Source: Candidatus Woesearchaeota archaeon (GTDB taxonomy: Archaea; Nanobdellota; Nanobdellia; Pacearchaeales; GW2011-AR1). From it: a stretch of DNA of 40,927 bases. The notes below the pieces were generated by a model that saw only the letters and a list, made by a program, of their open reading frames with translations, was not told where the DNA came from and searched no databases. The position numbers and the translations under genes are program-made. The stretch's first letter is position 1. Each line of letters opens with the position of its first letter. This document shows positions 6,188 through 38,891 of the stretch, in pieces. The stretch is from positions 1 to 40,927 of the forward strand of contig CAYZSY010000003.1 in assembly GCA_964481185.1 (NCBI GenBank), given 5' to 3'.

Positions 6188-6191
6188 AAGA

Positions 6192-6199
6192 TTTTTAAA
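6192..6199 (+). promoter_or_regulatory. Candidate internal TATA box (TTTTTAAA) for the rfbF-led genes
   Basis: An A/T box starts 29 nt upstream of ATG 6221, the same spacing seen at other promoters in this window. Confidence 0.35.
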
Positions 6200-6220
6200 T
6201 GTGCATTTCCAGCAAGATGT

Positions 6221-6907
6221 ATGAAATGTGTAATACTATGCGGGGGGCAAGGCACGAGAATGGGAGACCTGACTCAAGAGATGCCCAAACCTCTTCTTAA
6301 GATAGGGAATAAACCTATGTTATGCCATCTCATGGACTATTATGCAAAATATGGCGTCACAGAATTTATTGTTTGTTTGGGTTATCTGGGAGACAAAATA
6401 AAGGGATATTTTGCTGAAAATCCATCAAAATATAGCATAACATTTGTTGATACTGGAGAGAATACAACAAAGGCAGAAAGATTATTGAAGATTAAAGATT
6501 TGCTAGATGAGGATTTTTGTGTTGCATACGGAGACGATCTTTCAGATGTAAACATCAAGGAATTAGTTGAATTTTACAATTCTAAGAATAAAATTGCCAT
6601 GCTGACTGCAATAAGGCCGCAAAATCCCTTCGGCATTCTCGAGCTAGATGAAGAGACATCTGAAATAAAGGATTTTAAGGAAAAACCACTGATGAACGAA
6701 TGGATAAATGGGGGTTACTTCATATTTAATAAAAAAATTTTTAATTATTTTGGAGAAGGAGATGAGCTTGAGAAAGAGATATTTGAAAAGCTAGTCAAGG
6801 ACAAACAGATAGTGGCGTACAAGCATAGAGGATTCTGGAAATCAATGAATAACCTAAAGGATTATAAAGACCTAAATTTAATGTTTGAAAGTGGGAAACT
6901 AAAATGA
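6221..6907 (+). CDS. rfbF: Glucose-1-phosphate cytidylyltransferase-like sugar nucleotidyltransferase
   Basis: MKCVILCGGQGTRMGDLTQEMPKPLLKIGNKPMLCHLMDYYAKYGVTEFIVCLGYLGDKIKGYF matches my recollection of the RfbF/DdhA N-terminus (ILAGGxGTR...KPKPMVEIGGKPILWHIM...F(I/V)ICxGYKG). At 228 aa it is somewhat shorter than typical. Confidence 0.8.
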   Translation: MKCVILCGGQGTRMGDLTQEMPKPLLKIGNKPMLCHLMDYYAKYGVTEFIVCLGYLGDKIKGYFAENPSKYSITFVDTGENTTKAERLLKIKDLLDEDFCVAYGDDLSDVNIKELVEFYNSKNKIAMLTAIRPQNPFGILELDEETSEIKDFKEKPLMNEWINGGYFIFNKKIFNYFGEGDELEKEIFEKLVKDKQIVAYKHRGFWKSMNNLKDYKDLNLMFESGKLK

Positions 6908-23735: not shown

Positions 23736-23849
23736 TTTTGCACGCTTTTCTTGAATTTTCTTGGTTGTTCATCAATAAAATACTTCTCTTTGCATATTAT
23801 TAATGTTTCTTCTCTTAATTTTTCCATTGAACAAAAGCTTACAATAATC

Positions 23850-23857
23850 TTTATAAA
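23850..23857 (+). promoter_or_regulatory. TATA box TTTATAAA for gmd
   Basis: Starts 32 nt upstream of ATG 23882, in the 146-nt divergent spacer. Confidence 0.4.
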
Positions 23858-23881
23858 TGCATCTTCTGAGATGATTGTAAG

Positions 23882-24973
23882 ATGGCTCAAAAAGTAGCGC
23901 TAATAACAGGAATAGGCGGTCAAGATGGATCTTATTTGGCAGAATTTCTTTTGGAGAAAGGATACAAAGTAAGAGGCATAATTAGAAGGGCAAGTCTTCC
24001 AAATACAAAAAGAATAGAGCATCTTGTAATGAAATACGGCACTTCAGATGATAAAAACTCTTCATTTTTAGTTAAATACGCAGACCTCACAGATACTTCT
24101 TCAATAAAGGCAATTATTGAGGATTTTCAACCGGATGAAATTTATCATATTGGTGCACAAAGCCACGTCGGTATAAGCTTTAATAATGCAGAATCAACAA
24201 TTAATATAAACACTCTTGGCACACTAAGAATTCTAGAGACTCTCAGACAAATGAAATCAAAATGCAAATTTTATCAGGCCTCTTCTTCAGAAATGTTTGG
24301 AATCTCTCCTCCTCCGCAGAATGAATCTACACCAATGATTCCTCAAAGCCCCTATGGAATATCAAAGCTCGCAGCATACCATTTAACAAGATTGTATAGA
24401 AATGCATACGGGCTTTTTGCTTCTAATGGAATTCTCTTCAATCACGAGTCTCCAAGAAGAGGATATAATTTTGTTACGAGAAAGATAACAAAAGAGCTTG
24501 CAAAGATTGTTGTTGGTGAAAGTGATAAAATTGTCTTGGGCAACCTTGATGCGAAAAGAGACTGGGGTTTCTCAAAAGAATATATTGAAGCAATGTGGGC
24601 AATCCTCCAGCAGCCAACGCCTGATGATTTTGTAATTGCAACAGAAGAAACGCATACAATAGAGGACTTTGTAAAAGAAGCTTTCTCTCTGGTTGGTCTG
24701 AATTATGAGAACCATTTAATAACAAGCAATCAGTTTAAGAGGCCAGCAGAAGTGCCTGCTCTTTTAGGAGATTCCTCAAAAGCAAAAAGAATTTTGGGTT
24801 GGAATCCAAAAGTAAAATTCAAGGAGATTGCATTTATGATGGTTGAATCTGATCTTAAAGAAAAGTTGGAGGAATCTGGATTAATTCCCATAGAGCCAAA
24901 TGTTGTAAGACCAGAAGGATATTATATAGAAAAGGCGAAGGAAATTCTTGCGAAAAGAAAGCAGAACCTTTAA
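23882..24973 (+). CDS. gmd: GDP-mannose 4,6-dehydratase
   Basis: KVALITGIGGQDGSYLAEFLLEKGYKV.GI.RRAS is near-identical in pattern to E. coli Gmd. Also ASSSEMFG, SPYGISKLAAY, NGILFNHESPRRG, FVTRKIT, LGNLDAKRDWGFSKEY, DDFVIAT, RPAEV..LLGDSSKA. Confidence 0.92.
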   Translation: MAQKVALITGIGGQDGSYLAEFLLEKGYKVRGIIRRASLPNTKRIEHLVMKYGTSDDKNSSFLVKYADLTDTSSIKAIIEDFQPDEIYHIGAQSHVGISFNNAESTININTLGTLRILETLRQMKSKCKFYQASSSEMFGISPPPQNESTPMIPQSPYGISKLAAYHLTRLYRNAYGLFASNGILFNHESPRRGYNFVTRKITKELAKIVVGESDKIVLGNLDAKRDWGFSKEYIEAMWAILQQPTPDDFVIATEETHTIEDFVKEAFSLVGLNYENHLITSNQFKRPAEVPALLGDSSKAKRILGWNPKVKFKEIAFMMVESDLKEKLEESGLIPIEPNVVRPEGYYIEKAKEILAKRKQNL

Positions 24974-24975: not shown

Positions 24976-25431
24976 TTATTTTGTTTCTTGGATTATTGAA
25001 GGGCTTACTCTGATCGTGTCAGATTCGTAATCTTTCCCTCCGCGTAGTCCACTAGTAAAAGTTATGAATACAGTTTCAGGTTCAAGAATCTTTAGAGCAT
25101 GGATTTCATTAGGGGGCGTCGATATAATCTCCCAATTTTTTTGTAATTCGCATTTTGCCGGCTCATTAGAATTTAATGGTTTATACCAATATTCCATTGA
25201 ACCATTTATCATGAGCATGTGCTGTGTTGATTTTACATGATAATGATTTCCTCTTAGTGCTCCCTTATTTGAGCGAATCATATTTACATGATTTATATTG
25301 GTATTATAGAATATATCAACAATATCTCCCCTGTCATCTGTATGTAGCTCCAATTGCAGACCTTCATTTCTCCAAGCATTTGGCCCTACTTGCTTCCAAT
25401 CTGCATTGCTCCAGATATTTCTTTTTTGCAT
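24976..25431 (-). CDS. WxcM/FdtA/QdtA-type cupin, NDP-4-keto-6-deoxyhexose ketoisomerase/epimerase-like
   Basis: 151 aa. DDRGDIVDIF...NMIRSNKGALRGNHYHVKSTQHMLMINGS matches the D.RG...RG.HAH pattern of FdtA-like cupins. It is the last gene of a minus-strand operon. Confidence 0.6.
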   Translation of the reverse strand: MQKRNIWSNADWKQVGPNAWRNEGLQLELHTDDRGDIVDIFYNTNINHVNMIRSNKGALRGNHYHVKSTQHMLMINGSMEYWYKPLNSNEPAKCELQKNWEIISTPPNEIHALKILEPETVFITFTSGLRGGKDYESDTIRVSPSIIQETK

Positions 25432-25460: not shown

Positions 25461-26681
25461 TTATTCTGGAACAATAAATTTTATATTTGGATTTATTTTT
25501 GCCAAACCATCTTTTATCTGATTAGCTATGTTCCAAGAAAGTATCAAGGCACAGACCTCCCCGTTATATTTTGCAAAGATCTCATCTCCAACTATTGGGA
25601 TTCTACTCAACGGAGTATATTTTCCTTGTTTATGGGGAGAAGAGTCTGTAACATAATCTAAAATAGTATTTGTCAGATTGTAAAAGTTAAGGAAAGTATT
25701 TCCCTTTGCAGCAGCTCCAACCGCAACTATCGGAATATTCCTTCTCCTAATTTCATAGACTTTTTGGAGAAAGTTATTTCTTTGTTTTATTATATCTTCC
25801 ATAAATCTTTTGTAGCCATTTAAATCAAATAGCCCTTCTGAGAATTCTTTGTTGATGGTTTCCTCAAGCTGGCTGCATTCCGCACTCTCTACTCTATCTT
25901 CATGTTTTGCATAAACTCTCAATGAGCCGCCATGATAATCAACAACATCCAAATCTCTTATTCCCATCCCAGCTATCTCCAATATCTTTTTTGATGATCT
26001 TGCTGTGAAATAACTGACATGCTCATGATATATCTGATCAAATTTGCCTGTTTTGAATCCGATATACCAATATGGGAGCTCGTAAACAAAAGTTCCATCA
26101 TCAGAAAGCAGTTTTTTTACAGCTTTTGCAAAATCAAGGGGGCTGTTTGAGTGATTGAAAACGTTATTTGCGATAATAATGTCTGCTTTTCCATGTTTTT
26201 TCAATATTTCATCAGCAATTTTGGAATCAAAGAGACCAACTACAGTATCAACATTCCTATTTTTTGCAAGTCTCGCCATATAGTCAGAAGGATCAACGCC
26301 TAGAACCCTGTTTCCATTGCTTGCAAACTGTTCTGTTAAGAACCCGTCATTTGAACCTACTTCAACAATGAATGAATCTTTCTTTAAGCCTATCTTATCA
26401 GATACTTCTCTGGCGAAGTTTATCCAATGTGTTCTTGAAAAGTTAGAATTGGAGGAAGTATAAGAATAATCTACCTGACAATATCTGTCCATTGGATTTG
26501 TTTCGCATCTAAGCTGTATTTGGCCGCATTCTTGACAAAGGTCGCATATCAAAGGATATGCTTTATCTGCCTCAGAAATGCGGTCTTTAGGTACGAATGT
26601 GTCTGCAAACGGGTGCATTCCCAAATTTATTATCTCATTAAGGTTTATTGAACCGCAGATCAAGCACTTTGTTCTAAACAT
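25461..26681 (-). CDS. NDP-hexose C-methyltransferase (TylC3/EvaC-type class I SAM methyltransferase with N-terminal Zn-ribbon and C-methyltransferase C-terminal domain)
   Basis: CLICGS...YPLICDLCQECGQIQL (two Cys pairs), VEVGSNDG (SAM motif I), YHEHVSYF and HGGSLRVYA. I recognise this architecture from sugar C3/C5 C-methyltransferases. Confidence 0.8.
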   Translation of the reverse strand: MFRTKCLICGSINLNEIINLGMHPFADTFVPKDRISEADKAYPLICDLCQECGQIQLRCETNPMDRYCQVDYSYTSSNSNFSRTHWINFAREVSDKIGLKKDSFIVEVGSNDGFLTEQFASNGNRVLGVDPSDYMARLAKNRNVDTVVGLFDSKIADEILKKHGKADIIIANNVFNHSNSPLDFAKAVKKLLSDDGTFVYELPYWYIGFKTGKFDQIYHEHVSYFTARSSKKILEIAGMGIRDLDVVDYHGGSLRVYAKHEDRVESAECSQLEETINKEFSEGLFDLNGYKRFMEDIIKQRNNFLQKVYEIRRRNIPIVAVGAAAKGNTFLNFYNLTNTILDYVTDSSPHKQGKYTPLSRIPIVGDEIFAKYNGEVCALILSWNIANQIKDGLAKINPNIKFIVPE

Positions 26682-27178: not shown

Positions 27179-28699
27179 TCACTTTGCCTGCAAATTATAT
27201 AATACCCGCCTGATTGTACTTATAACTCCTTCGCGTCTTAAGAATCTTAAGATTTTTTCATATTTTTCTTTTTTGTTTTGCATATTCATAATAAATCCGC
27301 GGGGAAGCCAATAGAAAAAGTCGTATAAAATGTTGTATTTAATTGCACCTTGAAATGCCCGCCCAATATTTCTTAGATTACATGGATAAGTCGGTGTTCT
27401 GAATATGCACCTATAATACGCTTTTAATCTCTCTTCTTTAGGAAAATCAGGACTCTCAGCACAGGGCTCATCATAGGTAAAACTTTCTGTAATTCTACTA
27501 TCATAATTAAGAGTGTTACCGACAACCCCATTTTGTTTAAACCACCTCCCAACTTCAGTATCTTCGTATGGAAGTACTAGGTTCCATCCACAGTAATCCG
27601 CTCTGGTTTCATTTGCAAATTTTATACACGCTTTTACTCTTTCGTAATTATCTTCTGGCAAACCAATAATAAAAGAAAGGCCCAATTTTAATCCATATTT
27701 TTTTACTAATCTGGCAGCTTCTTTTATCTTTTCTAGAGACTCTCCTTTATTTACCAGTTTATATACCTCGGGATGTGCATGTTCTACACCTAACCAAACT
27801 TCAGGACAACCGCATTCTTTCAAGAGGGCCAATAAGTGGTCGTTAATACAATCTGCCCTTGTATTAACAATTCTTAAATCTAGCTTTATCTTTTTTCTGT
27901 ATAATTCTAAAAATTGAATAAACCTGTCAATATTCGTAGTCGGACAGTCATCGCACACAACAACTCGGATATTACTAGACAGACTTTTTTTTGCATTCTC
28001 CAACTCTTCAATGCAATTCTGAGGCGTTCGCCACCGCCACTTTCTATTTGAGACTGAAAAAACAGTGCAGAAACTGCATTTAAATGGGCAGCCTCGAGAA
28101 GTCATAATTGGATAGTTTCTTATATACTCTGATTTGTAAAATGATTTAAAATCTGGAAATGGAACATCATCTAAATTTACAAATTCACGCGATTGAATCC
28201 GTTCAGCCTTTTTAAGTTTTTTTGCTTTCTCAACTAAGTCTATTATAACGAGCTCTGCTTCGCCAACAGCAACATAATCTACTTTTTCATTTTCTAACAA
28301 CTGCTTTGGATATAAAGTTGCACATGGTCCGCCTACCAAGATTATTAAGTTCTTGTTAAATCGATTAACTTCAGAAATTGTTTTGCTAACTTCAGAGAAA
28401 TTTATACTATATGAACTTATTCCGACTATATCCGGCTTAAAATTTCTCAGGAAAAAAGAGACTGGGATATCCCCATGAAGTAAAACATAATCTACTACTA
28501 ACACCTCATGACCCCTCTCTCTTAGAATAGTCGATAGTATTGCCAATCCATTGTGTGGAATTGAAAACTCTACATTCTTCCTTTTTGGATTAATCAATAG
28601 AACTCTTTTTTTAAGAGATTCTGGAACAATTTTAATGGCCTTTAATTCTTGAGATTTCATGTTTTTAGTTGTTTTGAGAGATTTATAAATCTTAATCAT
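27179..28699 (-). CDS. B12-binding-domain radical SAM enzyme (class B), paralog 4
   Basis: LLINP, PDIVGISS, LVGGPCATLYP, AVGEAE, TSRGCPFKCSFCT (CX3CX2C). The likely true start is Met14 at 28660 (MKSQELK...), because a TTTATAAA box lies inside the first 13 codons, exactly 29 nt upstream of that ATG. Confidence 0.85.
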   Translation of the reverse strand: MIKIYKSLKTTKNMKSQELKAIKIVPESLKKRVLLINPKRKNVEFSIPHNGLAILSTILRERGHEVLVVDYVLLHGDIPVSFFLRNFKPDIVGISSYSINFSEVSKTISEVNRFNKNLIILVGGPCATLYPKQLLENEKVDYVAVGEAELVIIDLVEKAKKLKKAERIQSREFVNLDDVPFPDFKSFYKSEYIRNYPIMTSRGCPFKCSFCTVFSVSNRKWRWRTPQNCIEELENAKKSLSSNIRVVVCDDCPTTNIDRFIQFLELYRKKIKLDLRIVNTRADCINDHLLALLKECGCPEVWLGVEHAHPEVYKLVNKGESLEKIKEAARLVKKYGLKLGLSFIIGLPEDNYERVKACIKFANETRADYCGWNLVLPYEDTEVGRWFKQNGVVGNTLNYDSRITESFTYDEPCAESPDFPKEERLKAYYRCIFRTPTYPCNLRNIGRAFQGAIKYNILYDFFYWLPRGFIMNMQNKKEKYEKILRFLRREGVISTIRRVLYNLQAK

Positions 28700-28806: not shown

Positions 28807-30450
28807 CTAACTTTCTCTTGAACCTGTCACTAACTTCATCTTCTCCTGTTCCATCATAGCATTAATAAGAAATTTTAGTAAAGATATGTTTCCCCTCAAT
28901 ACATCCATAATAAGGAGATAAGAATATTTGTTTTTGAGGATACTTTTTTGTTTTAGCATGGAGTATATTTCATATAAAAATTTAAATCTGAATACTTCCT
29001 TCATAACCTTATAATCTTTTATTTTTACATCTTTAATCTGAATCAAAGGAATATCTACAAAAACACTATTTTTCTCATTTATAAAAGAGATTTCATCTCC
29101 TTCAAAAACTTTTTTGAAAGCAGTATAATTCTTGATAAAATAATGTTTATCTACCATCAATTGGTTTATATTAAGACAGGAAGCAAAATTTTTGCTGCTA
29201 AGTTTTCTATACGCATCATCTATAAAAAAGTACATATAATTTCCAACTAATTTGGAATAAACATAATAACTACAGCAACTAATCTTCTTTTTAGTTCTCT
29301 GCAAGGAATATGCTTGTAAATAATCTCTAAGAAAATGAGCATTACACTCGTCTTTAGAAAAGGATATATAATCTGCATCTTCAACTTTTTCTTTAATTCT
29401 CTTTATACTTAACTCAAAATCTCTCTCATTTAGAGTAATTATCTTTTTATTTAATTTAGGAAGTTCTTTATGGTATACGGACTTATTTAAAGTTTTATTT
29501 ATAAATCTCCTAAGCTGAATATTAATATTATATTTTTTAACAATCTTTTTGTAGGCTCTTTCCGTAATTTTCTCTCTTTCCTTATCATTCTCTAGATAAT
29601 AGTTAATTTTGTTTAGCAAATCTCTCTTGCTTTTGAACATAACCAATTCTCCTTTGTTAAAGAAATTTCTGTGCCCTGAAAAATATTGTTCAAGAACAAA
29701 AGACTTGCAAGCCACAATCTTGTAAACTCTTCCCTTATAATGTGTTTGCCCATATGCATTTTCTGAAAAAGACAGTACAATCTTGCTCTGATTTATTACT
29801 TTAATAAGTTGGCTATTGTCAAGCGGACCATGATAAATATCTTTAAATTCAGGATATTTATCCCACCCCCATCCATACAATCTTATGTTAATCCCCTTAT
29901 TCATTAAAAATTTGATAAAAGCATATCTCTGGGCTTTTGGAGCGCCTATAAAAGTTACATCGTATATTTTTTTTAAATTTAATGGCTTAAAATCTTCTAT
30001 ATTCACTAATGGATAAATCAGAAAAACATTTTTAATTCCTTCTCTTTTGTAATTCTTTACTAAATTCGGCTGGCTCATTAAATTATAATCAAAAAATAAC
30101 GCATGATATCTTGAAAAACTCTCAAACTGAGTATCATCATCTGAAAAGAAGTTAACCGTCTTCGTTGTCTCTGAAGATTCTTTAATTTTTATCAAGGTGT
30201 CTAAATAAACCTCGTCATAAGTCCAATAAAAGAAGATATAATCAGGCTTTTCTTTTTCTACCAACTCCAAGAGATGTTTATTCATAGATTCTTGTCCTTG
30301 TATCAACAGATTTTTTCTTGTATCAAACAAAATCAGCTTTTTGCAGAGATTCTTCAATGGTTTATACCAGTTTTGATATAAACTTCTATTTTTGTCCAGA
30401 CTCATCGCAAGAATGATTTTTTTAGCCTTGAAGAATTCTCTTTTTCTCAT
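28807..30450 (-). CDS. CgeB/YkvP-like glycosyltransferase-family protein (DUF3880 + Glyco_trans_1_2-like) with an unassigned ~200-aa C-terminal region
   Basis: The middle region IVLSFSENAYGQTHYKGRVYKIVACKSFVLEQYFSGHRNFFNKGELVMFKSKRDLLNKINYYLENDKEREKI resembles the spore-maturation CgeB-type GT-B C-terminal half. I cannot assign residues from about 330 to 547. Confidence 0.5.
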   Translation of the reverse strand: MRKREFFKAKKIILAMSLDKNRSLYQNWYKPLKNLCKKLILFDTRKNLLIQGQESMNKHLLELVEKEKPDYIFFYWTYDEVYLDTLIKIKESSETTKTVNFFSDDDTQFESFSRYHALFFDYNLMSQPNLVKNYKREGIKNVFLIYPLVNIEDFKPLNLKKIYDVTFIGAPKAQRYAFIKFLMNKGINIRLYGWGWDKYPEFKDIYHGPLDNSQLIKVINQSKIVLSFSENAYGQTHYKGRVYKIVACKSFVLEQYFSGHRNFFNKGELVMFKSKRDLLNKINYYLENDKEREKITERAYKKIVKKYNINIQLRRFINKTLNKSVYHKELPKLNKKIITLNERDFELSIKRIKEKVEDADYISFSKDECNAHFLRDYLQAYSLQRTKKKISCCSYYVYSKLVGNYMYFFIDDAYRKLSSKNFASCLNINQLMVDKHYFIKNYTAFKKVFEGDEISFINEKNSVFVDIPLIQIKDVKIKDYKVMKEVFRFKFLYEIYSMLKQKSILKNKYSYLLIMDVLRGNISLLKFLINAMMEQEKMKLVTGSRES

Positions 30451-30478: not shown

Positions 30479-30583
30479 ATTTATAAACCTTAATTTATTC
30501 TTGCTAAGATAAAGCATATATTCTCCAATATGAATGTTTAAAAATCGTGTCAATTATAAGAAATTATGAGTTTTAGAAGGGTT
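30479..30583. repeat. Copy B of the ~105-nt direct repeat (functional bidirectional promoter of the 547-aa gene and the SDR operon)
   Basis: See copy A. It contains TTTATAAA at 30480-30487 (minus-strand box, 37 nt from ATG 30450) and TTTAAAAA at 30537-30544 (29 nt from ATG 30566). Confidence 0.6.
30537..30544 (+). promoter_or_regulatory. TATA box (gaatgTTTAAAAA) for the 30566-37758 operon
   Basis: Starts 29 nt upstream of ATG 30566. Confidence 0.5.
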
Positions 30584-31546
30584 TTAATCACTGGAATTAG
30601 CGGCTCTGGAGGGAGCTATCTTGCGGAGTATGTAGCAGATAATCATCCTGAATCAGAGATTCATGGAATCTCAAGATGGCACAGTACTTCTTCTAAGAAG
30701 AATCTTGAGAGAATTGCAGATAAAGTGCAAATGCACGAATGCGATTTAACTGATATGAGCTCGGTTATTTCTTCTTTAAGAGAAACTAAGCCAGAGGCCA
30801 TATTTCACATTGCTTCTCACGCAAATGTTCGGGCTTCTTTTACAAATCCTCTGGCAGTCATTCAGAATAATATTATGGGAACCGCAAATCTTCTTGAAGC
30901 ATTGAGAATCGAGGGAATGAATTCAAGAGTTCAAATTTGCAGCACATCAGAAGTCTATGGGCAGGTTGATTCTAAAAATGTGCCTATTAAAGAGGATTGT
31001 CCAATAAATCCATCAAATCCTTATGCTGTCTCAAAGGTTGCTCAAGATTTGCTTGGTGGAGTTTATCATAGAAGTTATCAAATGGATATTGTAAGAACAA
31101 GAATGTTTTCTTATCTAAATCCAAGGAGGTCAGACTTATTTTCAACAAGCTTTGCTCTTCAAGTGGCAAGAATAGAACAAGGATTGCAGAAAGAGCTCAT
31201 ACATGGAAATCTAGACTCTACAAGAACAATTATAGATGTTAGAGATGCAATGGAGTCCTATTGGGTTGCAATAGAAAAAGGAAGGTCTGGAGAAGTTTAT
31301 AATATTGGAGGAGATAAGATAATAACAGTTGGAGAATTCTTACATCTTTTAAGGAAGAATGCAAAATGCGAGATTCCATGCAGGCAGGATCAATCATTAA
31401 TGAGGCCAAGCGATGTGACTTTGCAAATACCGGATGTATCAAAATTTAGAAACGAAACAGGATGGAAACCAAAATATAGTTTTGAGGAGAGTGTGGAATA
31501 TTTATTAAATCACTCTAGAAAAGAAGTTGAGAGGGAGATAAAATGA
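30566..31546 (+). CDS. Extended SDR of the GDP-mannose 4,6-dehydratase / GDP-4-keto-6-deoxymannose reductase (Gmd/Rmd, DmhA/DmhB-like) group
   Basis: RVLITGISGSGGSYLAEY, CSTSEVYG, PYAVSK (YxxxK), HGNLDSTRTIIDVRD (compare Gmd LGN.D..RDW and Rmd GNL...RDF.DVRD). Confidence 0.6.
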   Translation: MSFRRVLITGISGSGGSYLAEYVADNHPESEIHGISRWHSTSSKKNLERIADKVQMHECDLTDMSSVISSLRETKPEAIFHIASHANVRASFTNPLAVIQNNIMGTANLLEALRIEGMNSRVQICSTSEVYGQVDSKNVPIKEDCPINPSNPYAVSKVAQDLLGGVYHRSYQMDIVRTRMFSYLNPRRSDLFSTSFALQVARIEQGLQKELIHGNLDSTRTIIDVRDAMESYWVAIEKGRSGEVYNIGGDKIITVGEFLHLLRKNAKCEIPCRQDQSLMRPSDVTLQIPDVSKFRNETGWKPKYSFEESVEYLLNHSRKEVEREIK

Positions 31547-32532
31547 GTTTTTATAATAATAAGAAGGTTCTGATTACTGGCGGCTCTGGTATGATAGGAA
31601 GACCATTAATTAAGATGTTGACTGAAAGAGGGGCCAAGGTAAGAGTAACATCATTGGACGAACCTATAAAAAATTTAGGAGAGATAGACTTTCAGAAAGC
31701 AGATTTAACTCATTTAGAAAATTGTGTTAGCGCATGTAAAGATATGGATTTAGTTTTTCATCTTGCTGGAATAAAGGGTTCTGCAAAAATAGTATCTGAA
31801 AAACCAGCAACTTTTTTCTTTGGTAATCTTAGTATTAACACTAATATGATGGAAGCAGCAAGAAGGTGCGGAGCTGAAAGATATCTTTTTACAAGTACTG
31901 TTGGAGTGTATTCTCCAGCAGAGGTTTTTTACGAAGATGATGTCTGGAAAACCTTTCCTTCAGAAAAGGACAAGTTTGCAGGATGGGCAAAAAGAATGGG
32001 TGAGTTGCAGGCAGAAGCTTATAGTCTTCAATATAAATGGGACAAAATAACAATTGTTAGGCCTGCAAATGTTTACGGACCTTACGATAGTTTTGGGGCA
32101 GCAAATGCAATGGTTGTTCCTTCTTTAATAAAAAGAGCTGTTGATGGAGAGAATCCCTTTGTTGTCTGGGGGGATGGATCTGGGACAAGAGATTTTGTAT
32201 ATTCAGAAGATGTTGCAAGAGGCATGACGATGGCTCTTGAAAAATGTCCAGGACCTAATAAGCCTATAAATCTGGGTAGCGGCACAGGTTATTCTATAAA
32301 AAATTTGGTAAATATAATAATTGGTAATCTTGAAAAAAAGCCAGAAGTTGTTTGGGATACAAACAAACCACGTGGTGATAGAAAAAGGATACTGGACATT
32401 TCAAGAGCTAAAGATTTATTGGGATGGGAGCCGCAAATGACTCTTGAAGAAGGAGTAAGAAAGACAATGGATTGGTATAAAATAAATAAAGAAGCTGTTA
32501 GTGATAGATATTCCGCATTTAATGAAAAATAA
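31543..32532 (+). CDS. Extended SDR NDP-sugar epimerase/reductase (Fcl/WcaG-like)
   Basis: KKVLITGGSGMIGRPL, VRPANVYGPYDSF, VVPSLIKRA, VVWGDGSGTRDFVYSEDVA, WDTNKPRGDRKRILDISRAK. ATGA overlap with the upstream gene. Confidence 0.55.
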   Translation: MSFYNNKKVLITGGSGMIGRPLIKMLTERGAKVRVTSLDEPIKNLGEIDFQKADLTHLENCVSACKDMDLVFHLAGIKGSAKIVSEKPATFFFGNLSINTNMMEAARRCGAERYLFTSTVGVYSPAEVFYEDDVWKTFPSEKDKFAGWAKRMGELQAEAYSLQYKWDKITIVRPANVYGPYDSFGAANAMVVPSLIKRAVDGENPFVVWGDGSGTRDFVYSEDVARGMTMALEKCPGPNKPINLGSGTGYSIKNLVNIIIGNLEKKPEVVWDTNKPRGDRKRILDISRAKDLLGWEPQMTLEEGVRKTMDWYKINKEAVSDRYSAFNEK

Positions 32533-33211
32533 ATCTGTCTTAATAACTGGCTCTAGCAGAGGTCTTGGAAGAGAACTCGCTCTTGTTTTTGCTAGAGAAA
32601 AATATGGTATAATTCTAAACGGAAGAAATGGAATAGAACTGGAAAAAACTGCTGGGGAGATAAGAAAATTGGGTGTTGAGTGCTGTTCTGTGTTAGGAGA
32701 TATCAGAGATAGGAGAACTTTAGATGCTTTGTATGATGCTTCAAAAAGAAATGATATGGGGGTTCTGGTGAATAATGCCGGCTCTTCACTATCTGCACTT
32801 AAAGAAGTGGCAAATTATTTAAGTGATGAACAGATAGATGAAATGATAGAGACTCATCTTTCAGCTCCAATCAAGCTTGTTGCAAGAATGCTTCCATTAT
32901 TAAAAGAAAATAAAGGGACTATTATAAATATAAATTCACTTTCAGGTCTTGAGATTAAAAGATTGAGGGCTTGTTATTGTGCAAGCAAGTGGGGTTTAAG
33001 GGCATATACGGATGCGCTGAGACTGGAAACTGCTGATAATGTTAGGGTAATTGGGGTTTATCCAAGCAGGATAAAGACTATTCCAGAATTTCAGGGTTAT
33101 GGTTGGGAGCCAAGAGAGGTAGCAGAAAGAATATACGAAAGTTTTAAAAATATAGACAGCACAAATCTGGTATTGGATGGCAGGCCTACAGAGCATAGGA
33201 CATCAAGATGA
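32501..33211 (+). CDS. Classical short-chain dehydrogenase/reductase
   Basis: VLITGSSRGLGRELA (TGxxxGxG), NNAG, YCASK (YxxxK). The listed GTG start overlaps the upstream gene by 32 nt. ATG at 32522 (MKNKSVLITG) is a more likely start. Confidence 0.7.
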   Translation: MIDIPHLMKNKSVLITGSSRGLGRELALVFAREKYGIILNGRNGIELEKTAGEIRKLGVECCSVLGDIRDRRTLDALYDASKRNDMGVLVNNAGSSLSALKEVANYLSDEQIDEMIETHLSAPIKLVARMLPLLKENKGTIININSLSGLEIKRLRACYCASKWGLRAYTDALRLETADNVRVIGVYPSRIKTIPEFQGYGWEPREVAERIYESFKNIDSTNLVLDGRPTEHRTSR

Positions 33212-34188
33212 GCAAAAAAGTTTTAGTATGTGGTGCAACAGGATTCATAGGAAGAAATACTGCTGAATTCTTGTCAAAGAGAGAAGACTTTGAGGTTTAT
33301 GGGACATATCATAATTCTCAGCGGTATGACAATTCACGCATTAACCTTGAGAATATAGATCTTACTGATAAGGATGCTGTAAGAAGAATTGTCAAAGGAA
33401 AAGATGTGATAGTGCAAGCTGCAGCAGCCTGTTCTGGAGCGTTAGAAATGAAAACTAAACCATATTACCATGTTGTTGATAATGTTAGAATGAATCCATT
33501 AATTTTTGAAGCAGCCCACGAGTTTGGGGTGCCGCATGTTATATTTCCTAGTTGCACTACAGTATATTTGCCTTCAGACAAGCCATTAAAAGAAGAAGAT
33601 TTTAACTTAAGCGATGGATTATTGCCAAATTATCTTTGGTGTGGAGGGACAAAAGTTTTTCTAGAAAAACTATGCGAACTATTTTCTGGACTAGGCAATA
33701 CAAGATATACTGTTTTTAGGCATTCAAATGTTTATGGACCTTACGATAAGTTTGACTTAGAAAGGTCACATGTATTTGGTGCGACAATGACAAAAGTAAT
33801 GACTGCGAAAGATGGGGGAGAGGTAGTTGTCTGGGGAGATGGCGAAGGAGAGAGAGATTTATTATATTCATCTGATATTGCTGGATTTATAGAAAGAGCA
33901 ATTGATAGGCAAACAACACCTTTTGAGATTGTTAATGTAGGATGCGAAAGCGCCATATCTATAAAAAACCTTGTTCAGAAAATTATTGACATTTCTGGAA
34001 AAAACCTTAGTATAAAATATGATTTATATAGACTCGTGAGGGATAAAAAAACAAAAAAGGATAATGAAAGAATGGTTCTTGACTCAACAAAAGCAAGAGA
34101 GAAATTTGGGTGGCAGCAACAGACAGCTTTAGACGATGGTATTAGATATACAATGGAATGGTATAAGAAGAATATCTTAGCAACATAA
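33208..34188 (+). CDS. Extended SDR, Fcl-like NDP-sugar epimerase/reductase with an atypical active-site segment
   Basis: KVLVCGATGFIGRN, FPSCTTVY, NVYGPYDKFDLERSHVFGA, VVWGDGEGERDLLYSSD. The segment PNYLWCGGTKVFLEKLCE aligns by eye with Fcl PTNEPYAIAKIAGIKLCE, which puts Cys where the catalytic Tyr is expected. Confidence 0.55.
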   Translation: MSKKVLVCGATGFIGRNTAEFLSKREDFEVYGTYHNSQRYDNSRINLENIDLTDKDAVRRIVKGKDVIVQAAAACSGALEMKTKPYYHVVDNVRMNPLIFEAAHEFGVPHVIFPSCTTVYLPSDKPLKEEDFNLSDGLLPNYLWCGGTKVFLEKLCELFSGLGNTRYTVFRHSNVYGPYDKFDLERSHVFGATMTKVMTAKDGGEVVVWGDGEGERDLLYSSDIAGFIERAIDRQTTPFEIVNVGCESAISIKNLVQKIIDISGKNLSIKYDLYRLVRDKKTKKDNERMVLDSTKAREKFGWQQQTALDDGIRYTMEWYKKNILAT

Positions 34189-34247: not shown

Positions 34248-35213
34248 ATGCAAAAAGAGAGAATTCTCATAACAGGTGGCGCAGGATATCTGGGAAGTGT
34301 TTTATCAAGGCACATTATTGAAAGAGGAAATCCTGTTACAATAGTTGACAATTTGATGTACAATCAAGATTTTGCTACAGGCCTTAAAGATAATCCTCTA
34401 TTTGAGATTATCAAGGGAGATGTTAGAGACAAGGAATTAATTAGAAGAGCCATTAGAGATAAAGAGGTTATAATTCCTTTAGCTGCTCTTGTTGGAATGC
34501 CCATTTGTAATAGAAATCCTGAAGATGCTCTATCAATTAATCGGGATGCAGTGATTATGCTCAATGAATTAAGAGGAATTAATCAAAAGCTTGTTTACCC
34601 AACAACCAATAGCGGCTATGGCACAAAAACAGGAGAAGTTTTCTGTACAGAAGAAACTCCTTTGGACCCTATTTCTGTTTATGGGATATCAAAATGCGAA
34701 GCTGAAAGAGCATTGCTTGAATCGGCAAAGCCAGCCATAACTTTTAGATTTGCCACTATTTTTGGATTTTCTCCAAGAATGAGGCTCGACTTGCTCGTGA
34801 ACGATTTCGTATTTAGAGCAATGACTGAGAAAAAACTTGTGTTATTCGAACCGCATTTTAAAAGAAACTATTTACATATTAAAGATGCAGCAAGAGTATT
34901 CATGCATGCTATTGATAATTTTGATTCTATGCATGGCAAGCCGTATAATGTTGGATTAGAAGACGCAAATTTGTCAAAAATGGAGCTAGCCTTGAAAATA
35001 AAAAGTTATATTCCAGAATTAGATATTAGCGAGGGAGATGGAAAAGACCCTGATCAAAGAAACTATATTGTTTCCAACAAAAGAATAACGGATACAGGAT
35101 TTAGAACAAACTTTTCATTGGATTATGGTATAAAAGAGCTTATTGGTCTTTATGAAGAGATACTAAAAAAGGAGACACCTGCAAATATAAGAAAACGCAT
35201 GGCAAATATATGA
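34248..35213 (+). CDS. Extended SDR NAD-dependent NDP-sugar epimerase/dehydratase
   Basis: RILITGGAGYLGSVL, PTTNSGYG, VYGISK (YxxxK), RNYLHIKDAA. Confidence 0.6.
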   Translation: MQKERILITGGAGYLGSVLSRHIIERGNPVTIVDNLMYNQDFATGLKDNPLFEIIKGDVRDKELIRRAIRDKEVIIPLAALVGMPICNRNPEDALSINRDAVIMLNELRGINQKLVYPTTNSGYGTKTGEVFCTEETPLDPISVYGISKCEAERALLESAKPAITFRFATIFGFSPRMRLDLLVNDFVFRAMTEKKLVLFEPHFKRNYLHIKDAARVFMHAIDNFDSMHGKPYNVGLEDANLSKMELALKIKSYIPELDISEGDGKDPDQRNYIVSNKRITDTGFRTNFSLDYGIKELIGLYEEILKKETPANIRKRMANI

Positions 35214-35740
35214 TAAAAAGAGCTGTTTTTTTAGATAGAGATGGGGTAATTTGTAAGGAGAAAAATCTATTTTACGGTGGGAAGCCCATACTTAGACCAG
35301 AGGATTTTGAGTGGATTTATGGCTCTAAAACTGCATTGAGAGAATTGAAAGAATTAAATTTTAAAACATTCGTTGTTACGAACCAGTCATCCATCAGTAA
35401 AGGCATTCTGAATTTTAAGCAGTTTATGAGAATAAATCAGCCAATAATCGAGGAGCATCCTGAAATTCATTTTTACTGTTGCCCGCATAGAAGAGAAGAA
35501 AATTGTTCCTGTAGAAAACCCAAGATAAAATTTCTTCTTCAAGCTAAGAAAGAGCACGGAGTTTCATTAGAAGATTCTTATGTAATTGGAGACAAAACGC
35601 AAGATATTCTGATGGGAAAAAATGCAGGATGCAAAACAATTCTCGTTAGAACGGGATATGGTGGAAGAGACGAGTTGTACAAAGTCAAATATGATTTTGA
35701 GGTCAGAGATTTTTTGGAGGCAGTCAGATTCTTAAGATGA
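35210..35740 (+). CDS. gmhB: D-glycero-D-manno-heptose 1,7-bisphosphate phosphatase (HAD-IIIA, GmhB-type)
   Basis: AVFLDRDGVI (DxDG nucleophile motif), VVTNQSSISKG, the Zn-finger insert CCPHRREENCSCRKPK, and GDKTQDILMGKNAG. ATGA overlaps on both sides. Confidence 0.8.
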   Translation: MIKRAVFLDRDGVICKEKNLFYGGKPILRPEDFEWIYGSKTALRELKELNFKTFVVTNQSSISKGILNFKQFMRINQPIIEEHPEIHFYCCPHRREENCSCRKPKIKFLLQAKKEHGVSLEDSYVIGDKTQDILMGKNAGCKTILVRTGYGGRDELYKVKYDFEVRDFLEAVRFLR

Positions 35741-37758
35741 AAGCGATTATTCTTGCAGGGGGTTTTGGAACAAGATTAAAAAGCATACTTGGAGATATCC
35801 CCAAACACATGATAATGATTGCTGGCAAGCCTTTCTTAGAATACCAGATAATGTTTCTTAAGAAACAGGGGATAAATGAGATAATCTTAGCAGTTCATCA
35901 TATGTCAAATAAGATAAAATCTTATTTTGGCAATGGGTCGAGATTGGGTGTAGATATAATATATTCTGAAGAAGAAACCCCTCTTGGTACAGGCGGGGCA
36001 ATTAAGAATGCACAAAGATACATAGATGATACTTTCTTGGTTCTAAACGGAGATTCTTATTCTCAGATAGATATTCAGAAATTTTTAGAATTTCACCGCT
36101 CCAAAAATAGCATTTCTACAATAAGCATAATGAAAACCAATGATTCTGAAAATTATGGCAATATTATTCTAGATGGAAGCAAAATAACAGACTTTTCGGA
36201 GAAAAAAGAGTCTACGGGGGGATTTGCCAATAGCGGAGTATATATCTTAGAACCAAGCATTTTCAAATATATAGAACATAACAAAAATATCTCTCTTGAA
36301 AAAGAGATATTCCCAAATTTAGCAAAAGCAGGTTTAATGCAAGGATATTTCTATAATGGTTATTTCATGGATATAGGCAGGCCTGAAACATATAATCAAT
36401 TTAAAAAAGATGTTATTGACACCCTTTTCTTAAGCGAAAGAAACAAAATAAGGGAGGCTATACAAAGAATCTCAGAAAGCAGAATAGACGTTATTTTAGT
36501 TGTAGATGAGAATAAGAAGTTTCTTGGCATTTTAAATGACCAGCTTATTAAAGAGTTTATACTAAAAGGAGGAAATGTCGACGATAATGTTGGGATGGCT
36601 ATAAGAAAAGACCATGTAACTGCAAAAATAAACGACGATCCTAAAAAAATATCAGATATTCTCATATCTGGAATTAACCCTCTTCCAATATTAGATGATA
36701 ACGGGAGAGTAAATACAATAGAATTCCTGGAAGAAAAAATAAAAGCTGAAAATTTCCCAATTGTTAGAGGTAAAGCCCCCCTTAGGATAAGTTTTGCTGG
36801 TGGCGGAACAGATTTGCCTTATTTTTTTAGAAAATATGGGGGCGTTGTTATCAATGCGACTATTAATAAATATTGTTACGCTACTATTATAAAAAGAGCT
36901 GATTCAAAAATAATAATTAATTCAGATATTTGTGATGAGATTATTTTGGATTCAAAAAAGAGATTGGAATATGACGGAAAATTAGACTTAATCAAAGCAA
37001 TTGTAAATATTATGAAGCCTGATTTCGGTTTTGAGATTTATTTGCATAATGATATTCCTCCAGGAAGGGGGCTTGGCTCATCAGCTTCTATAGCGGTTTT
37101 AGTTATTAGCCTGTTAAGCTATCTACAAAACCTTAATTATGATGATTATAAGATTGCAGAGATTGCATATACGGCAGAGCGTGAGGAGCTAAAAATAAAA
37201 GGCGGCTGGCAGGACCAGTATGCTGCAGTAATAGGCGGATTTAATTTTATAGAATTCAATGAAGAAAAGAGCATCATATATCCTTTAAGGCTAAAGGAAG
37301 AATTGGTTCACGAATTAAAAGAGTACGTATCTCTTTACTATGTTGGAATTTCTAGGCACTCTGGGGAAGTTCATAAGAGTTGGGAAGAAACTTTTGCACA
37401 AAAAGAAGAAGATATAATAAAAAACCTTAACAATCTTAAATCGCTGACTATAAAAATAAAGGATTGTATACTTACTAATAATTTAGAGATGATAGGAAAA
37501 TTGCTGCACGAATCTTGGGAAAATAAGAAGAAATTAAGTAAAAATATATCTAATCCTGTTATCGATAATTTATACGAAATAGGGTTGAATAACGGGGTTT
37601 ATGGAGGAAAATTGCTAGGAGCAGGCGGCGGAGGTTATCTTTTGCTTTTTCATCCTTCTAAAAAGAGAAATCAGATAAAAAAGGCCTTGGAAAATTCAGG
37701 CGGGCAGCTTTTGGACTTTAATTTTGAATTTGGCGGGACTAAAATTTGGACAGCATAA
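35737..37758 (+). CDS. Tri-domain fusion: sugar-1-phosphate nucleotidyltransferase (HddC-like) + CBS pair + GHMP sugar kinase (HddA-like heptose-7-phosphate kinase)
   Basis: N-terminus MKAIILAGGFGTRL...GKPFLEYQI...PLGTGGAI...LNGDSY (NTP_transferase). The middle has two CBS-like repeats (IDVILVVDENKKFLGILNDQLIKEF; INPLPILDDNGRVNTIEF). The C-terminus has RGKAPLRISFAGGGTDLPYF and PPGRGLGSSASIAV plus GAGGGGYLLLF (GHMP kinase, COG2605/HddA-like). Confidence 0.75.
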   Translation: MKAIILAGGFGTRLKSILGDIPKHMIMIAGKPFLEYQIMFLKKQGINEIILAVHHMSNKIKSYFGNGSRLGVDIIYSEEETPLGTGGAIKNAQRYIDDTFLVLNGDSYSQIDIQKFLEFHRSKNSISTISIMKTNDSENYGNIILDGSKITDFSEKKESTGGFANSGVYILEPSIFKYIEHNKNISLEKEIFPNLAKAGLMQGYFYNGYFMDIGRPETYNQFKKDVIDTLFLSERNKIREAIQRISESRIDVILVVDENKKFLGILNDQLIKEFILKGGNVDDNVGMAIRKDHVTAKINDDPKKISDILISGINPLPILDDNGRVNTIEFLEEKIKAENFPIVRGKAPLRISFAGGGTDLPYFFRKYGGVVINATINKYCYATIIKRADSKIIINSDICDEIILDSKKRLEYDGKLDLIKAIVNIMKPDFGFEIYLHNDIPPGRGLGSSASIAVLVISLLSYLQNLNYDDYKIAEIAYTAEREELKIKGGWQDQYAAVIGGFNFIEFNEEKSIIYPLRLKEELVHELKEYVSLYYVGISRHSGEVHKSWEETFAQKEEDIIKNLNNLKSLTIKIKDCILTNNLEMIGKLLHESWENKKKLSKNISNPVIDNLYEIGLNNGVYGGKLLGAGGGGYLLLFHPSKKRNQIKKALENSGGQLLDFNFEFGGTKIWTA

Positions 37759-37766
37759 ACTAGATA

Positions 37767-38891
37767 CTAAAATCTTTTAAAATATTTGTGTAAAACATCA
37801 GAAGCGTAATCTAAATCTTCTATTGTTAAATATTGATGTACCCCAAAATGCAATCCATTATCTCCAATATATTCTGCTTCTGGAAAATCTCCCAACTTAT
37901 ACCCTAAAAATTCAAATGCCTTATGTTGAGTAGGCATACTCCCAAAATTTCTCTTACATTTTATAGAATTCTCTTCTAGAAATTTGGATAATTTGGCAAG
38001 ATTATACTTCGGGTCTTTCAAGGTAACACTGAATCCATGGGGACAGACACTTTCATAACTATTTTCTGTATTAAAATAAGCGTATTCTTTCAAGTCCATT
38101 GTTCTCTCAATTAGCCTATTTAAATTTTCTTTCCTTTTATTAAATGTCCACCAGAACCTATCTATTTCAGATAATCCTATGGATGCCTCCAAGTCATTCA
38201 TTTTTGCATTATGCCCTAATCTCACGTGATTAAAATATAAATCTCCATCTTTTCTCCCATGTGTTCTGACAGACCTTAAAATTGGGGCAATCATATCATT
38301 ATTTGTAGAAATCATTCCCCCTTCACCACAACAGACAAGATGTGCAATATAATAGCTGAAAGTCGCCATATCTCCCCAATTTCCTACGTATTTTCCCTTA
38401 AATTTTGCTCCATGTGCCTCACAAGAGTCTTCTATAACATAAAGATTATTTCTTCTCGCTATATCTACAATACTATCCATCTCACAAGGTTTGCCCATGG
38501 TATGAACAGCCATTATAGCTCTTGTTCTTGGAGTTATTTTTTCTTCTATCTTCCCGGGGTTTATATTTAGGGTCTCTTTTTCTACATCTACAAAAACAGG
38601 CTTAAATCCTGCAAGCAGAATAGACTCCCCAACTGCTGCAAATGCCAGTGCGGGCGCAATTACTTCATCCCCCCTTCTTGCTCCAAAGTCATACAATGAA
38701 AGACAAGCGCTTAAATCAGCGCTTGTTCCAGAACTAACTGCGATATTATATTTATAATCAAATAACTTTCCCCACTCTTCTTCAAATTTCTTTACTTTCG
38801 GCCCTCCAGAAGCCCAATTTGTTTCAACAACATTAAGAAGATTTTGTCTGGCTTTTTCATCTATCCTAAGTTCACCGAATTCCACTCTCAT
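37767..38891 (-). CDS. DegT-family PLP/PMP enzyme with His replacing the Schiff-base Lys: predicted NDP-4-keto-6-deoxy-sugar 3-dehydratase (ColD/E1-like)
   Basis: SSGTSADLSA, VIEDSCEAHGA and ATFSYYIAHLVCCGEGGMIST. The position occupied by Lys in the paralog at 16635 (FSFYPGKNLGSYGDGG) is His here, as in ColD and E1 dehydratases. Confidence 0.7.
   Translation of the reverse strand: MRVEFGELRIDEKARQNLLNVVETNWASGGPKVKKFEEEWGKLFDYKYNIAVSSGTSADLSACLSLYDFGARRGDEVIAPALAFAAVGESILLAGFKPVFVDVEKETLNINPGKIEEKITPRTRAIMAVHTMGKPCEMDSIVDIARRNNLYVIEDSCEAHGAKFKGKYVGNWGDMATFSYYIAHLVCCGEGGMISTNNDMIAPILRSVRTHGRKDGDLYFNHVRLGHNAKMNDLEASIGLSEIDRFWWTFNKRKENLNRLIERTMDLKEYAYFNTENSYESVCPHGFSVTLKDPKYNLAKLSKFLEENSIKCKRNFGSMPTQHKAFEFLGYKLGDFPEAEYIGDNGLHFGVHQYLTIEDLDYASDVLHKYFKRF

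Follow-up and report, generated by a model that had tools for sequence, protein, structure and literature searches.

A single-chain nucleotidyltransferase-CBS-kinase protein in a DPANN archaeal glycan locus and its candidate role in GDP-heptose synthesis

In the characterized GDP-heptose systems, which use GmhA, HddA, GmhB, and HddC, the kinase and the nucleotidyltransferase are separate proteins and there is no CBS pair. HldE, which acts in the synthesis of ADP-L-glycero-beta-D-manno-heptose in E. coli and other Gram-negative bacteria, fuses the heptose 7-phosphate kinase to the heptose 1-phosphate nucleotidyltransferase, with GmhB as a separate protein. Its kinase is of the PfkB type and its adenylyltransferase of the cytidylyltransferase type. 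The bifunctional nature of HldE is described in the available text of PMC4691232. A third arrangement is that of FKP from Bacteroides fragilis (PDB 5yys, 9iit), in which an N-terminal pyrophosphorylase and a C-terminal GHMP kinase share one chain; this enzyme acts on the free sugar and needs no phosphatase. Here we describe a 673-residue protein that joins a sugar 1-phosphate nucleotidyltransferase, a CBS pair, and a GHMP kinase in one chain, with the transferase first, and whose gene is coupled to that of a GmhB-like phosphatase. It is encoded in contig CAYZSY010000003.1 of a Candidatus Woesearchaeota archaeon. The window we analyzed is this entire contig of 40,927 bp (C3), which belongs to a genome assembly of 550 kb in 28 contigs that is 80.88% complete (GCA_964481185.1; G000 below). 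We found no study of a transferase-CBS-kinase fusion, or of GDP-heptose in DPANN archaea, in the literature searched, which left most subscription journals outside.

Pfam scans of the protein matched NTP_transferase (residues 2-226, 130.1 bits), CBS (231-271, 28.8 bits), GHMP_kinases_N (PF00288; 418-501, 71.1 bits), and GHMP_kinases_C (PF08544; 577-653, 40.3 bits), confirming the three parts named in the original prediction, which had been made from the DNA sequence alone. When the linker (residues 228-342) was scanned by itself, two CBS stretches were detected at 35.3 bits (cut-off 24). The transferase half has an RmlA-like NTP_transferase fold with a GGFGTRL loop at residues 8-14, while the kinase half carries APLRISFAGGGTDL at 347-360 and its phosphate-binding loop, PPGRGLGSSAS, at 441-451. 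An AlphaFold2 model built from 45 sequences is confident throughout, including the joints between domains (pLDDT 89.1, pTM 0.85), and folds residues 231-329 into two beta-alpha-beta-beta-alpha units.

The fusion had been thought unusual. It is in fact common in this archaeal group, with more than 100 close homologues, and it has bacterial members. All of the 120 best listed homologues are 598-728 residues long, are 54%-83% identical to the fusion, and contain both PF00483 and PF00288; by our own count, 103 of these 120 also have a precomputed CBS match. Most come from DPANN archaea. Their database names are generic (“sugar phosphate nucleotidyltransferase” and “CBS domain-containing protein”), with a JGI label of heptose-7-phosphate kinase. 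The relatives are named as Nanoarchaeota, Pacearchaeota, and Woesearchaeota, and the source is therefore a DPANN-type archaeon, small and probably host-dependent.

One explanation for a protein of this kind is an artifact, in which a missed stop codon, a frameshift, or a chimeric metagenome assembly has joined two genes. Some substance is given to this idea by P0001, the closest protein in the databases, which comes from a 25-kb ENA contig: it is 100% identical to the fusion over residues 1-359 and approximately 63% identical from residue 360 onward. The break falls near position 36814, immediately past the conserved GGGTDL motif, and suggests that, in one of the two lineages, the allele is recombinant or the assembly chimeric. 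We examined the integrity of the fusion across its domain joints using Logan contigs, which are assembled from public sequencing runs. A 5766-nt contig from run X1, which may be the source sample, spans 35000-37952 without a difference. Runs from other studies cross both the break point and the two joints: X12 covers 36529-37196 with no differences, and X6 covers 35348-36643 with no differences and 36634-37062 with one. Thus, the window's version of the fusion is supported by independent contigs. The reading frame is uninterrupted over its whole length, all 120 best homologues share its length and domains, and the AlphaFold2 model is confident over the joints. On the contig evidence and the homologue architecture, we rejected a frameshift or chimera, the probability of which we regard as negligible.

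In sequence comparisons, the kinase half was closest to the HddA/WcbL-type heptose 7-phosphate kinase family and not to fucokinase or galactokinase, as the original prediction had proposed. Against the NCBIfam HddA model (NF049969), the domain scored 287.6 bits over positions 2-337 of 338, compared to 124.6 bits for FKP, 98.8 bits for mevalonate kinase, and 74.6 bits for galactokinase. The top four PDB matches are all heptose kinases, led by 4n3o from C. jejuni at 241.7 bits, with WcbL (221.7 bits) and 3k85 next; identity to WcbL and 4n3o is 34%-36%. These structures also headed the Foldseek search, where the AlphaFold2 model superposed on WcbL with a TM score of 0.90 and a root-mean-square deviation (rmsd) of 2.2. 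In WcbL, the key catalytic residues are R13 and D163, as reported in the available text of PMC4691232. They align with R350 and D493 of the fusion, both of which are invariant across the 45 sequences. The same available text states that the sugar pocket of WcbL holds D-mannose in crystals and that soaking with M7P was unsuccessful, such that there is no complex with the true substrate (PMC4691232).

The transferase half is narrowly nearest to HddC by sequence. It scored 182.3 bits against the NCBIfam HddC model (NF049965) versus 169.6 bits against the ManC-like model, and Foldseek aligned it to HddC (5xhw) with a TM score of 0.88 and 38% identity.

The gene directly upstream of the fusion encodes the GmhB-like phosphatase. 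Its motifs (DRDGV at residue 9, CCPH at 90, and CSCRKP at 99) are those on which the GmhB call had first been made. DRDGV is the HAD nucleophile motif, and the Cys/His zinc loop aligns with that of E. coli GmhB (3l8e). NCBIfam and PDB comparisons support the call: the protein exceeds the cut-off of TIGR01656, a model of the HAD-IIIA/histidinol-phosphatase domain (104.8 bits versus 84.15), and the best four of its five PDB matches are heptose 1,7-bisphosphate phosphatases at 55-63 bits (3l8e, 63.5), with HisB last at 45.1 bits. The predicted translational coupling is also present, since the stop codon of the phosphatase gene and the start codon of the fusion overlap in an ATGA at 35737-35740. 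A second ATGA, at 35210-35213, joins the phosphatase gene to the short-chain dehydrogenase/reductase (SDR) gene upstream of it.

From these assignments, we consider it reasonably probable that the fusion and the phosphatase make GDP-heptose for surface glycans. The kinase domain would phosphorylate O1 of a heptose 7-phosphate, the separately encoded, translationally coupled phosphatase would then take off the 7-phosphate, and the N-terminal HddC-like domain would join the heptose 1-phosphate to GMP from GTP. The presumed product, GDP-heptose, would enter an operon of a GMD-like 4,6-dehydratase, a probable His-type 3-dehydratase, and Fcl-like reductases/epimerases (Table 1). The AglB-dependent glycan locus would thereby receive a 6-deoxy or 3,6-dideoxy sugar. 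Such a route would share its folds, and three of its four steps in inferred chemistry, with the GmhA/HddA/GmhB/HddC pathway. Compared with HldE, it would fuse the same two steps, again with GmhB apart. The two proteins differ in that the domain order is opposite and that HldE makes the beta anomer, uses ATP rather than GTP, and has no CBS pair. As neither of the HldE folds was found among the Pfam and NCBIfam matches of the fusion, the resemblance is analogous, not homologous, in line with the analogy drawn at the outset.

The neighboring genes are consistent with this route. In C. jejuni, GDP-heptose is modified by a 4,6-dehydratase, a pyridoxal phosphate (PLP)-dependent 3-dehydratase, and C4-reductases to give 6-deoxy and 3,6-dideoxy heptoses, according to the available text of PMC10680097. 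The enzyme set beside the fusion matches this one, which supports a GDP-heptose substrate. It equally parallels the colitose route from GDP-mannose. At 22797-24973, the window also encodes a GDP-mannose 4,6-dehydratase of the canonical type, scoring 426.2 bits against a cut-off of 415, together with an Fcl-like partner, whereas the operon's own GMD-like protein scored 151 bits against gmd (TIGR01472; cut-off 415). Orthologues of the latter lie directly beside gmhA in G290 (locus L046, 40.5% identity) and near gmhA in G108 (L048, 45% identity). The presence of two dehydratases of different type suggests two different GDP-sugar substrates. Since the operon's dehydratase is divergent, shares the window with a canonical one, and has orthologues near gmhA, its substrate may be other than GDP-mannose.

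To place the fusion among its relatives, we used 301 genomes drawn evenly from the class. A full-length match to the fusion was found in three: in G290 at 51% identity, in G167 at 47%, and in this genome itself. When one genome was scanned for each species, 15 loci were obtained, of which nine contain true tri-domain genes by their open reading frame (ORF) maps (L031-L038 and L040). Kinase-domain matches at E <= 1e-15 occurred in 46 of the 301 genomes; nine were dropped, as only residues ~90-335 matched and the frames were 281-327 amino acids long, leaving 37 with a full-length kinase. Counting gmhA at E <= 1e-17, which excluded one match at 8e-14 and ten near 1e-6 in longer unrelated frames, we found it in 46 of the 301 genomes. 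Heptose genes are thus not rare in this class, contrary to the earlier view that heptose is uncommon in archaea. The two genes go together: gmhA is present in 28 of the 37 genomes with the kinase and in 18 of the 264 others, an association rather than a statistic, since related genomes are not independent.

Linkage extends to the level of single loci. In seven loci (L042, L043, L044, L012, L009, L050, and L024), no more than 20 nt separates the kinase gene from gmhA, or the two are fused. In Chloroflexia (L042), the transferase, GmhA, and the kinase are encoded by three abutting genes, and this kinase is the closest unfused relative at 44% identity. In Thermoplasmata (L043, L044), genes for the transferase, the kinase, GmhA, and a GmhB fusion stand in a row. 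G167, which is 99% complete, has gmhA, gmhB, and the tri-domain fusion in one 10-kb locus; since G167 has no other kinase of the family, its pathway would lack two steps without the fusion. Locus L037 contains the same trio of SDR, GmhB, and fusion genes with the same overlaps as the window, and gmhA lies 3.4 kb upstream.

We also noted further gene fusions in these relatives. In G200, G225, and G177 (L050, 6137-7792; L051, 5573-7126; L030, 838-2469), GmhA shares a chain with another HddA-like kinase. This second kinase is more divergent (~150 bits against the HddA model), and the fused gene often adjoins that of a first kinase of the window's type. In L037 and L047, the tri-domain gene lies within a nonulosonic acid-type cluster (NeuB, CMP-sugar synthetase, and 2-epimerase) with gmhA and gmhB, and heptose genes may thus be linked to nine-carbon sugar synthesis in these loci. 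These NeuB clusters led us to consider a PtmE-like GDP-GlcN route, which we set aside because the window has no NeuB, CMP-sugar synthetase, or 2-epimerase gene.

Several observations weigh against the heptose route. One group concerns family models. The kinase is below the curated HddA equivalog cut-off (287.6 versus 600 bits), the transferase does not reach the HddC cut-off (182.3 versus 300), and the phosphatase is below both GmhB models (NF006506, 119.2 versus 178; TIGR00213, 101.3 versus 149.6). The preference of the transferase for HddC is also narrow in the PDB, where HddC (6jq8/5xhw) scored 138 bits, UGPase 131.6 bits, and ManC/GDP-mannose pyrophosphorylase ~130 bits. For the kinase, we compared genes that adjoin gmhA in other phyla; these are also under the HddA cut-off (Chloroflexia L042, 312.5 bits; Thermoplasmata L043, 230.2 bits), indicating that the cut-off defines a narrow bacterial group and not a function. 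The score of the fusion is on par with these kinases and above those of the GmhA-fused kinases (154.2 and 151.3 bits).

A second group concerns genes that this organism appears to lack. In the 80.88%-complete genome, we found neither gmhA nor any SIS domain, and a local hidden Markov model (HMM) built from the GmhA proteins of four relatives returned nothing below E = 1. The window, which is the whole contig, does not contain gmhA, whereas the gene lies 3-10 kb from the fusion in L037, L047, and L046. With no SIS-domain protein, the assembly also has no enzyme of the GlmS, PGI/PMI, or PHI type. Searches of the assembled genome detected no transketolase-type PF02779 domain and no transaldolase, and the assembly thus shows no isomerase and no source of sedoheptulose 7-phosphate. 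The transketolase and transaldolase results are not decisive, since gmhA-positive tri-domain genomes vary as well: PF02779 is present in four of five, the exception being G290, from the same family as this genome, and transaldolase is present only in G301.

The absence of gmhA recurs in relatives. Of 12 tri-domain genomes, five have both gmhA and a GmhB-like gene (G167, G301, G303, G308, and G311, which contains L037), one has gmhA only (G290), three have the GmhB-like gene only (this genome, G305, and G306), and three have neither (G302, G304, and G307). Thus, gmhA was not found in six of the 12, three of which also lack the GmhB-like gene, although the completeness of G301-G311 is not established. 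Likewise, nine of the 37 kinase-bearing genomes of the class have no gmhA match, including five that are 96%-100% complete (G034, G020, G217, G032, and G039). Part of the enzyme family therefore does work without a recognizable GmhA, and this genome may be one such case or may carry gmhA in its missing fifth. The original prediction had named two findings that together would speak against a heptose enzyme, a genome without gmhA and a kinase that groups with anomeric sugar 1-kinases. The first holds for the whole 81% genome and the second does not. As no gmhA was found, a heptose product in this organism is probable rather than proven.

These gaps bear on a second reading, in which the enzymes bypass a mutase. 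The route would start from a hexose 6-phosphate, most plausibly mannose 6-phosphate; the kinase would convert it to mannose 1,6-bisphosphate, the phosphatase would release mannose 1-phosphate, and the transferase would form GDP-mannose without a phosphomannomutase, feeding the canonical GMD/Fcl pair and the deoxy-sugar operon. In the assembled genome, there is no phosphohexomutase (PGM/PMM), just as there is no gmhA or SIS domain. Local HMMs detected three transferases of this fold in the genome, which are the fusion, a CDP-glucose-type enzyme (6221-6907), and one weak match on contig C1, and no second kinase of the family; the fusion is the only transferase of the ManC/HddC class found. As a canonical GMD is present, and neither a phosphohexomutase nor a dedicated mannose 1-phosphate guanylyltransferase was detected, the fusion may have to supply GDP-mannose, a further point against the heptose route. 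The ManC-like model is only 13 bits under HddC, and the pocket of WcbL can accommodate D-mannose in the crystals cited above (PMC4691232). Three genomes (G000, G305, and G307) combine the fusion with gmd and have neither gmhA nor PMM.

The PGM/PMM family (PF02878) is also missing from 10 of the 11 tri-domain genomes searched. We dropped this as a special trait of fusion genomes, since the family f1 as a whole is mostly without PGM/PMM (eight of 47 genomes have it, as do 159 of 301 in the class), with or without the fusion. The nearest unfused relatives of the kinase reside in gmhA clusters, and the operon's second, divergent GMD-like gene speaks for a different substrate from GDP-mannose. Moreover, we know of no enzyme of this family that uses a hexose 6-phosphate physiologically. 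On balance, we regard a mutase bypass as unlikely, though it deserves to be kept in view.

A third reading, raised as an alternative in the original prediction, is that the fusion is an FKP-like salvage enzyme. The kinase would act on the anomeric hydroxyl of a free sugar from the host or environment (a heptose, mannose, or deoxy sugar), the transferase would activate the product directly, and the phosphatase would serve elsewhere. FKP demonstrates that a kinase-pyrophosphorylase fusion can work as a salvage enzyme, as described in the available text of PMC11982464. The lack of upstream sugar-phosphate metabolism in the assembled 81% of the genome fits scavenging, as do the three of 12 tri-domain genomes with neither gmhA nor a GmhB-like gene. 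Among 12 tri-domain loci inspected, only three, namely the window, L037, and L047, have a GmhB-like gene within ~5 kb of the fusion. Salvage nevertheless leaves unexplained why, in the window, translational coupling ties the phosphatase gene to both of its neighbors, the fusion and an SDR gene. Because salvage of a free sugar has no role for a phosphatase, this coupling speaks for the heptose route. The kinase is also far nearer to HddA than to fucokinase or galactokinase, and only the kinase half resembles FKP, weakly (124.6 bits versus a cut-off of 721; PDB matches of 78-82 bits). Pfam detected no fucokinase-type pyrophosphorylase domain in the fusion, and full-length FKP superposes only domain by domain, the whole-chain superposition failing with an rmsd of 29. 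Salvage of this type therefore seems improbable to us.

A broader possibility, which we put forward tentatively and think rather doubtful, is that DPANN archaea lacking both gmhA and the mutase use the tri-domain enzyme together with the GmhB-like phosphatase as a general bypass. Scavenged sugar 6- or 7-phosphates, such as mannose 6-phosphate and heptose 7-phosphate, would be converted to GDP-sugars, with these two proteins as the sole way into GDP-sugar metabolism, and the CBS pair would gate the reaction by nucleotide status. Gating of an entry step that consumes ATP and GTP would suit a cell whose nucleotides come from its host.

We next consider the CBS pair and how the fusion may have arisen. 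The CBS region is the least conserved part of the protein: across 44 homologues, its mean identity is 44.6%, compared with 61.0% and 62.5% for the flanking domains. Even so, 22 of its columns, including G264 and P317, are conserved, with a single residue shared by 80% or more of the 45 sequences. Among the best 150 cluster representatives at 50% identity, four are full-length tri-domain proteins, eight are transferase-kinase fusions without CBS, and 40 are CBS-kinase proteins, the last counted by length (442-481 residues) and matched range (~225-672). Pfam scans confirmed the CBS-kinase form in each of four representatives and in the L039 gene from Magnetovibrio, as well as the tri-domain form in a Rhodospirillaceae bacterium. 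CBS-kinase proteins are, judging from these matches, a large unstudied family that includes bacterial members.

Two of these forms differ from the fusion in informative ways. The two-domain proteins (Magnetovibrio L039, 9599-10957; P0129; P0145) have the same CBS-kinase unit without a fused transferase, which in Magnetovibrio is encoded by a separate gene just upstream. The CBS-less fusions (G108 and G287; P0126 and P0132) share both catalytic domains and their order with the tri-domain protein and are encoded close to gmhA, gmhB, and a GMD-like gene, but their linker is ~15 residues long, there is no CBS pair, and the kinase belongs to a different clade. In a quick maximum-likelihood analysis covering 38 kinase domains, whose tree is unrooted and drawn at the midpoint, all 12 tri-domain kinases grouped together (SH-aLRT 94) with the Magnetovibrio CBS-kinase as sister (89), and the G108 and G287 kinases fell in the other half of the tree, across branches with support of 100 and 97. 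The transferase half of the CBS-less fusions scored higher against the ManC-like model than against HddC (160.4 versus 123.2 bits). By these comparisons, transferase and kinase were probably fused twice. In the simplest history, the CBS pair would have joined the kinase before the transferase was fused in front, and the CBS-less fusion would have a separate origin. The CBS pair is thus probably an inherited N-terminal appendage of the kinase half and, by analogy, a nucleotide-sensing or dimerizing module. From other CBS enzymes, adenine or guanine nucleotides or the GDP-sugar product can be guessed as ligands.

The coordinates of the fusion, its domains, and its neighbors are given in Table 1.

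Table 1. The tri-domain fusion, its domains, and neighboring genes in the window
Feature	Position	Strand	Evidence
Tri-domain fusion ORF, 673 aa: nucleotidyltransferase, CBS pair, GHMP kinase	35737..37758	+	Pfam, NCBIfam, homologue architecture, contigs, AlphaFold2
HddC-like sugar 1-phosphate nucleotidyl(guanylyl)transferase domain, residues 1-228	35737..36420	+	PF00483, NCBIfam, PDB, Foldseek
CBS pair (Bateman module), residues 229-340	36421..36756	+	Pfam on linker, AlphaFold2 model
HddA/WcbL-like GHMP sugar-phosphate kinase domain, residues 341-673	36757..37755	+	NCBIfam, PDB, Foldseek
GmhB-like HAD-IIIA phosphatase, zinc loop, 176 aa	35210..35740	+	NCBIfam, TIGR01656, PDB
Extended SDR (dehydratase/epimerase type), most constant neighbor of the fusion	34248..35213	+	PF01370, 100.9 bits
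DegT-family enzyme, His at PLP-lysine position, probable ColD/RfbH-type sugar 3-dehydratase	37767..38891	-	PF01041, 301.5 bits; RfbH
Divergent GDP-mannose-4,6-dehydratase-like SDR, opens the + strand run	30566..31546	+	PF16363, 242.4 bits
Fcl-like SDR	31543..32532	+	Pfam, NCBIfam
Short-chain SDR	32501..33211	+	Pfam
Fcl-like SDR	33208..34188	+	Pfam, NCBIfam
Glycosyltransferase (Glyco_trans_1_2) traveling with the cassette	28807..30450	-	PF13524, 84.7 bits

The + strand run begins with the GMD-like gene at 30566 and continues through the Fcl-like (31543), short-chain (32501), Fcl-like (33208), and extended SDR (34248) genes to those for the phosphatase and the fusion, and the DegT-family gene faces it from the opposite strand. 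The two Fcl-like proteins scored 144 and 123.1 bits against the NCBIfam GDP-L-fucose synthase model, under its cut-off of 500. For the DegT-family protein, RfbH was the best NCBIfam match (235.3 bits), and His184 occupies the lysine column in an alignment to the aminotransferase 7b0m. A scan for promoters and terminators in the window was no richer than shuffled sequence (37 versus 36.6 and 6 versus 5.9), and a look-up of RNA runs containing this stretch listed none.

Much of this arrangement recurs with the fusion in other genomes. Orthologues of the extended SDR (49%-58% identity) are encoded directly upstream of the fusion in L031, L032, L033, L036, and L037 and nearby in L040 and L047, while DegT orthologues (58%-73% identity) lie beside it in six loci (L031-L034, L036, and L046). 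The glycosyltransferase has orthologues (39%-47% identity) in six of the nine tri-domain loci (L031, L032, L033, L036, L037, and L038), and those of the three SDR genes at 31543..34188 recur in L032, L035, L038, and L046. In L038, the SDR types encoded at 31543 and 33208 are joined in one 646-residue protein (5508-7448). Other fusions in the relatives' cassettes are a radical SAM/SPASM-DegT protein of 741 residues and a formyltransferase-NeuB protein of 664 residues (L047, 7445-9667 and 9750-11741).

The glycan locus of the window has additional features. More than ten glycosyltransferases and many NDP-sugar enzymes are encoded in the window alone. Four genes (11531-13027, 18692-20128, 20214-21617, and 27179-28699) encode B12-binding radical SAM proteins, which may be sugar C-methylases or other radical sugar modifiers; similar genes are found in the relatives' cassettes L037, L047, and L048. 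A small ORF at 24976-25431, with weak FdtA/WxcM-like and Polysacc_synt_C matches, adjoins a sugar C-methyltransferase gene (Methyltransf_14) at 25461-26681, and the pair hints at a branched or 3-keto-isomerized deoxy sugar from the same locus. Directly after the glycan locus, the contig ends (39808-40926) with genes for an MjaI-type restriction endonuclease (225.5 bits) and, in convergent orientation, an N4/N6 DNA methylase.

The chemistry of the GDP-heptose pathway is known. What is new here is the single-chain HddC-CBS-HddA form, the CBS-kinase core family, and the place of the fusion in a conserved DPANN glycan cassette. The fusion and GmhB may provide a compact two-protein reagent for enzymatic GDP-heptose synthesis, and the fusion offers a test case for the role of CBS pairs in nucleotide-sugar enzymes. 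It could also serve as a marker for heptose-type surface glycans in uncultured archaea. The missing isomerase and sugar-phosphate metabolism raise the question of how host-dependent archaea get their glycan precursors. If the heptose route is correct, one chain would carry out both steps two and four of GDP-heptose synthesis in many DPANN archaea, a second solution that would be independent of the HldE of Gram-negative bacteria and would have a built-in sensor module.

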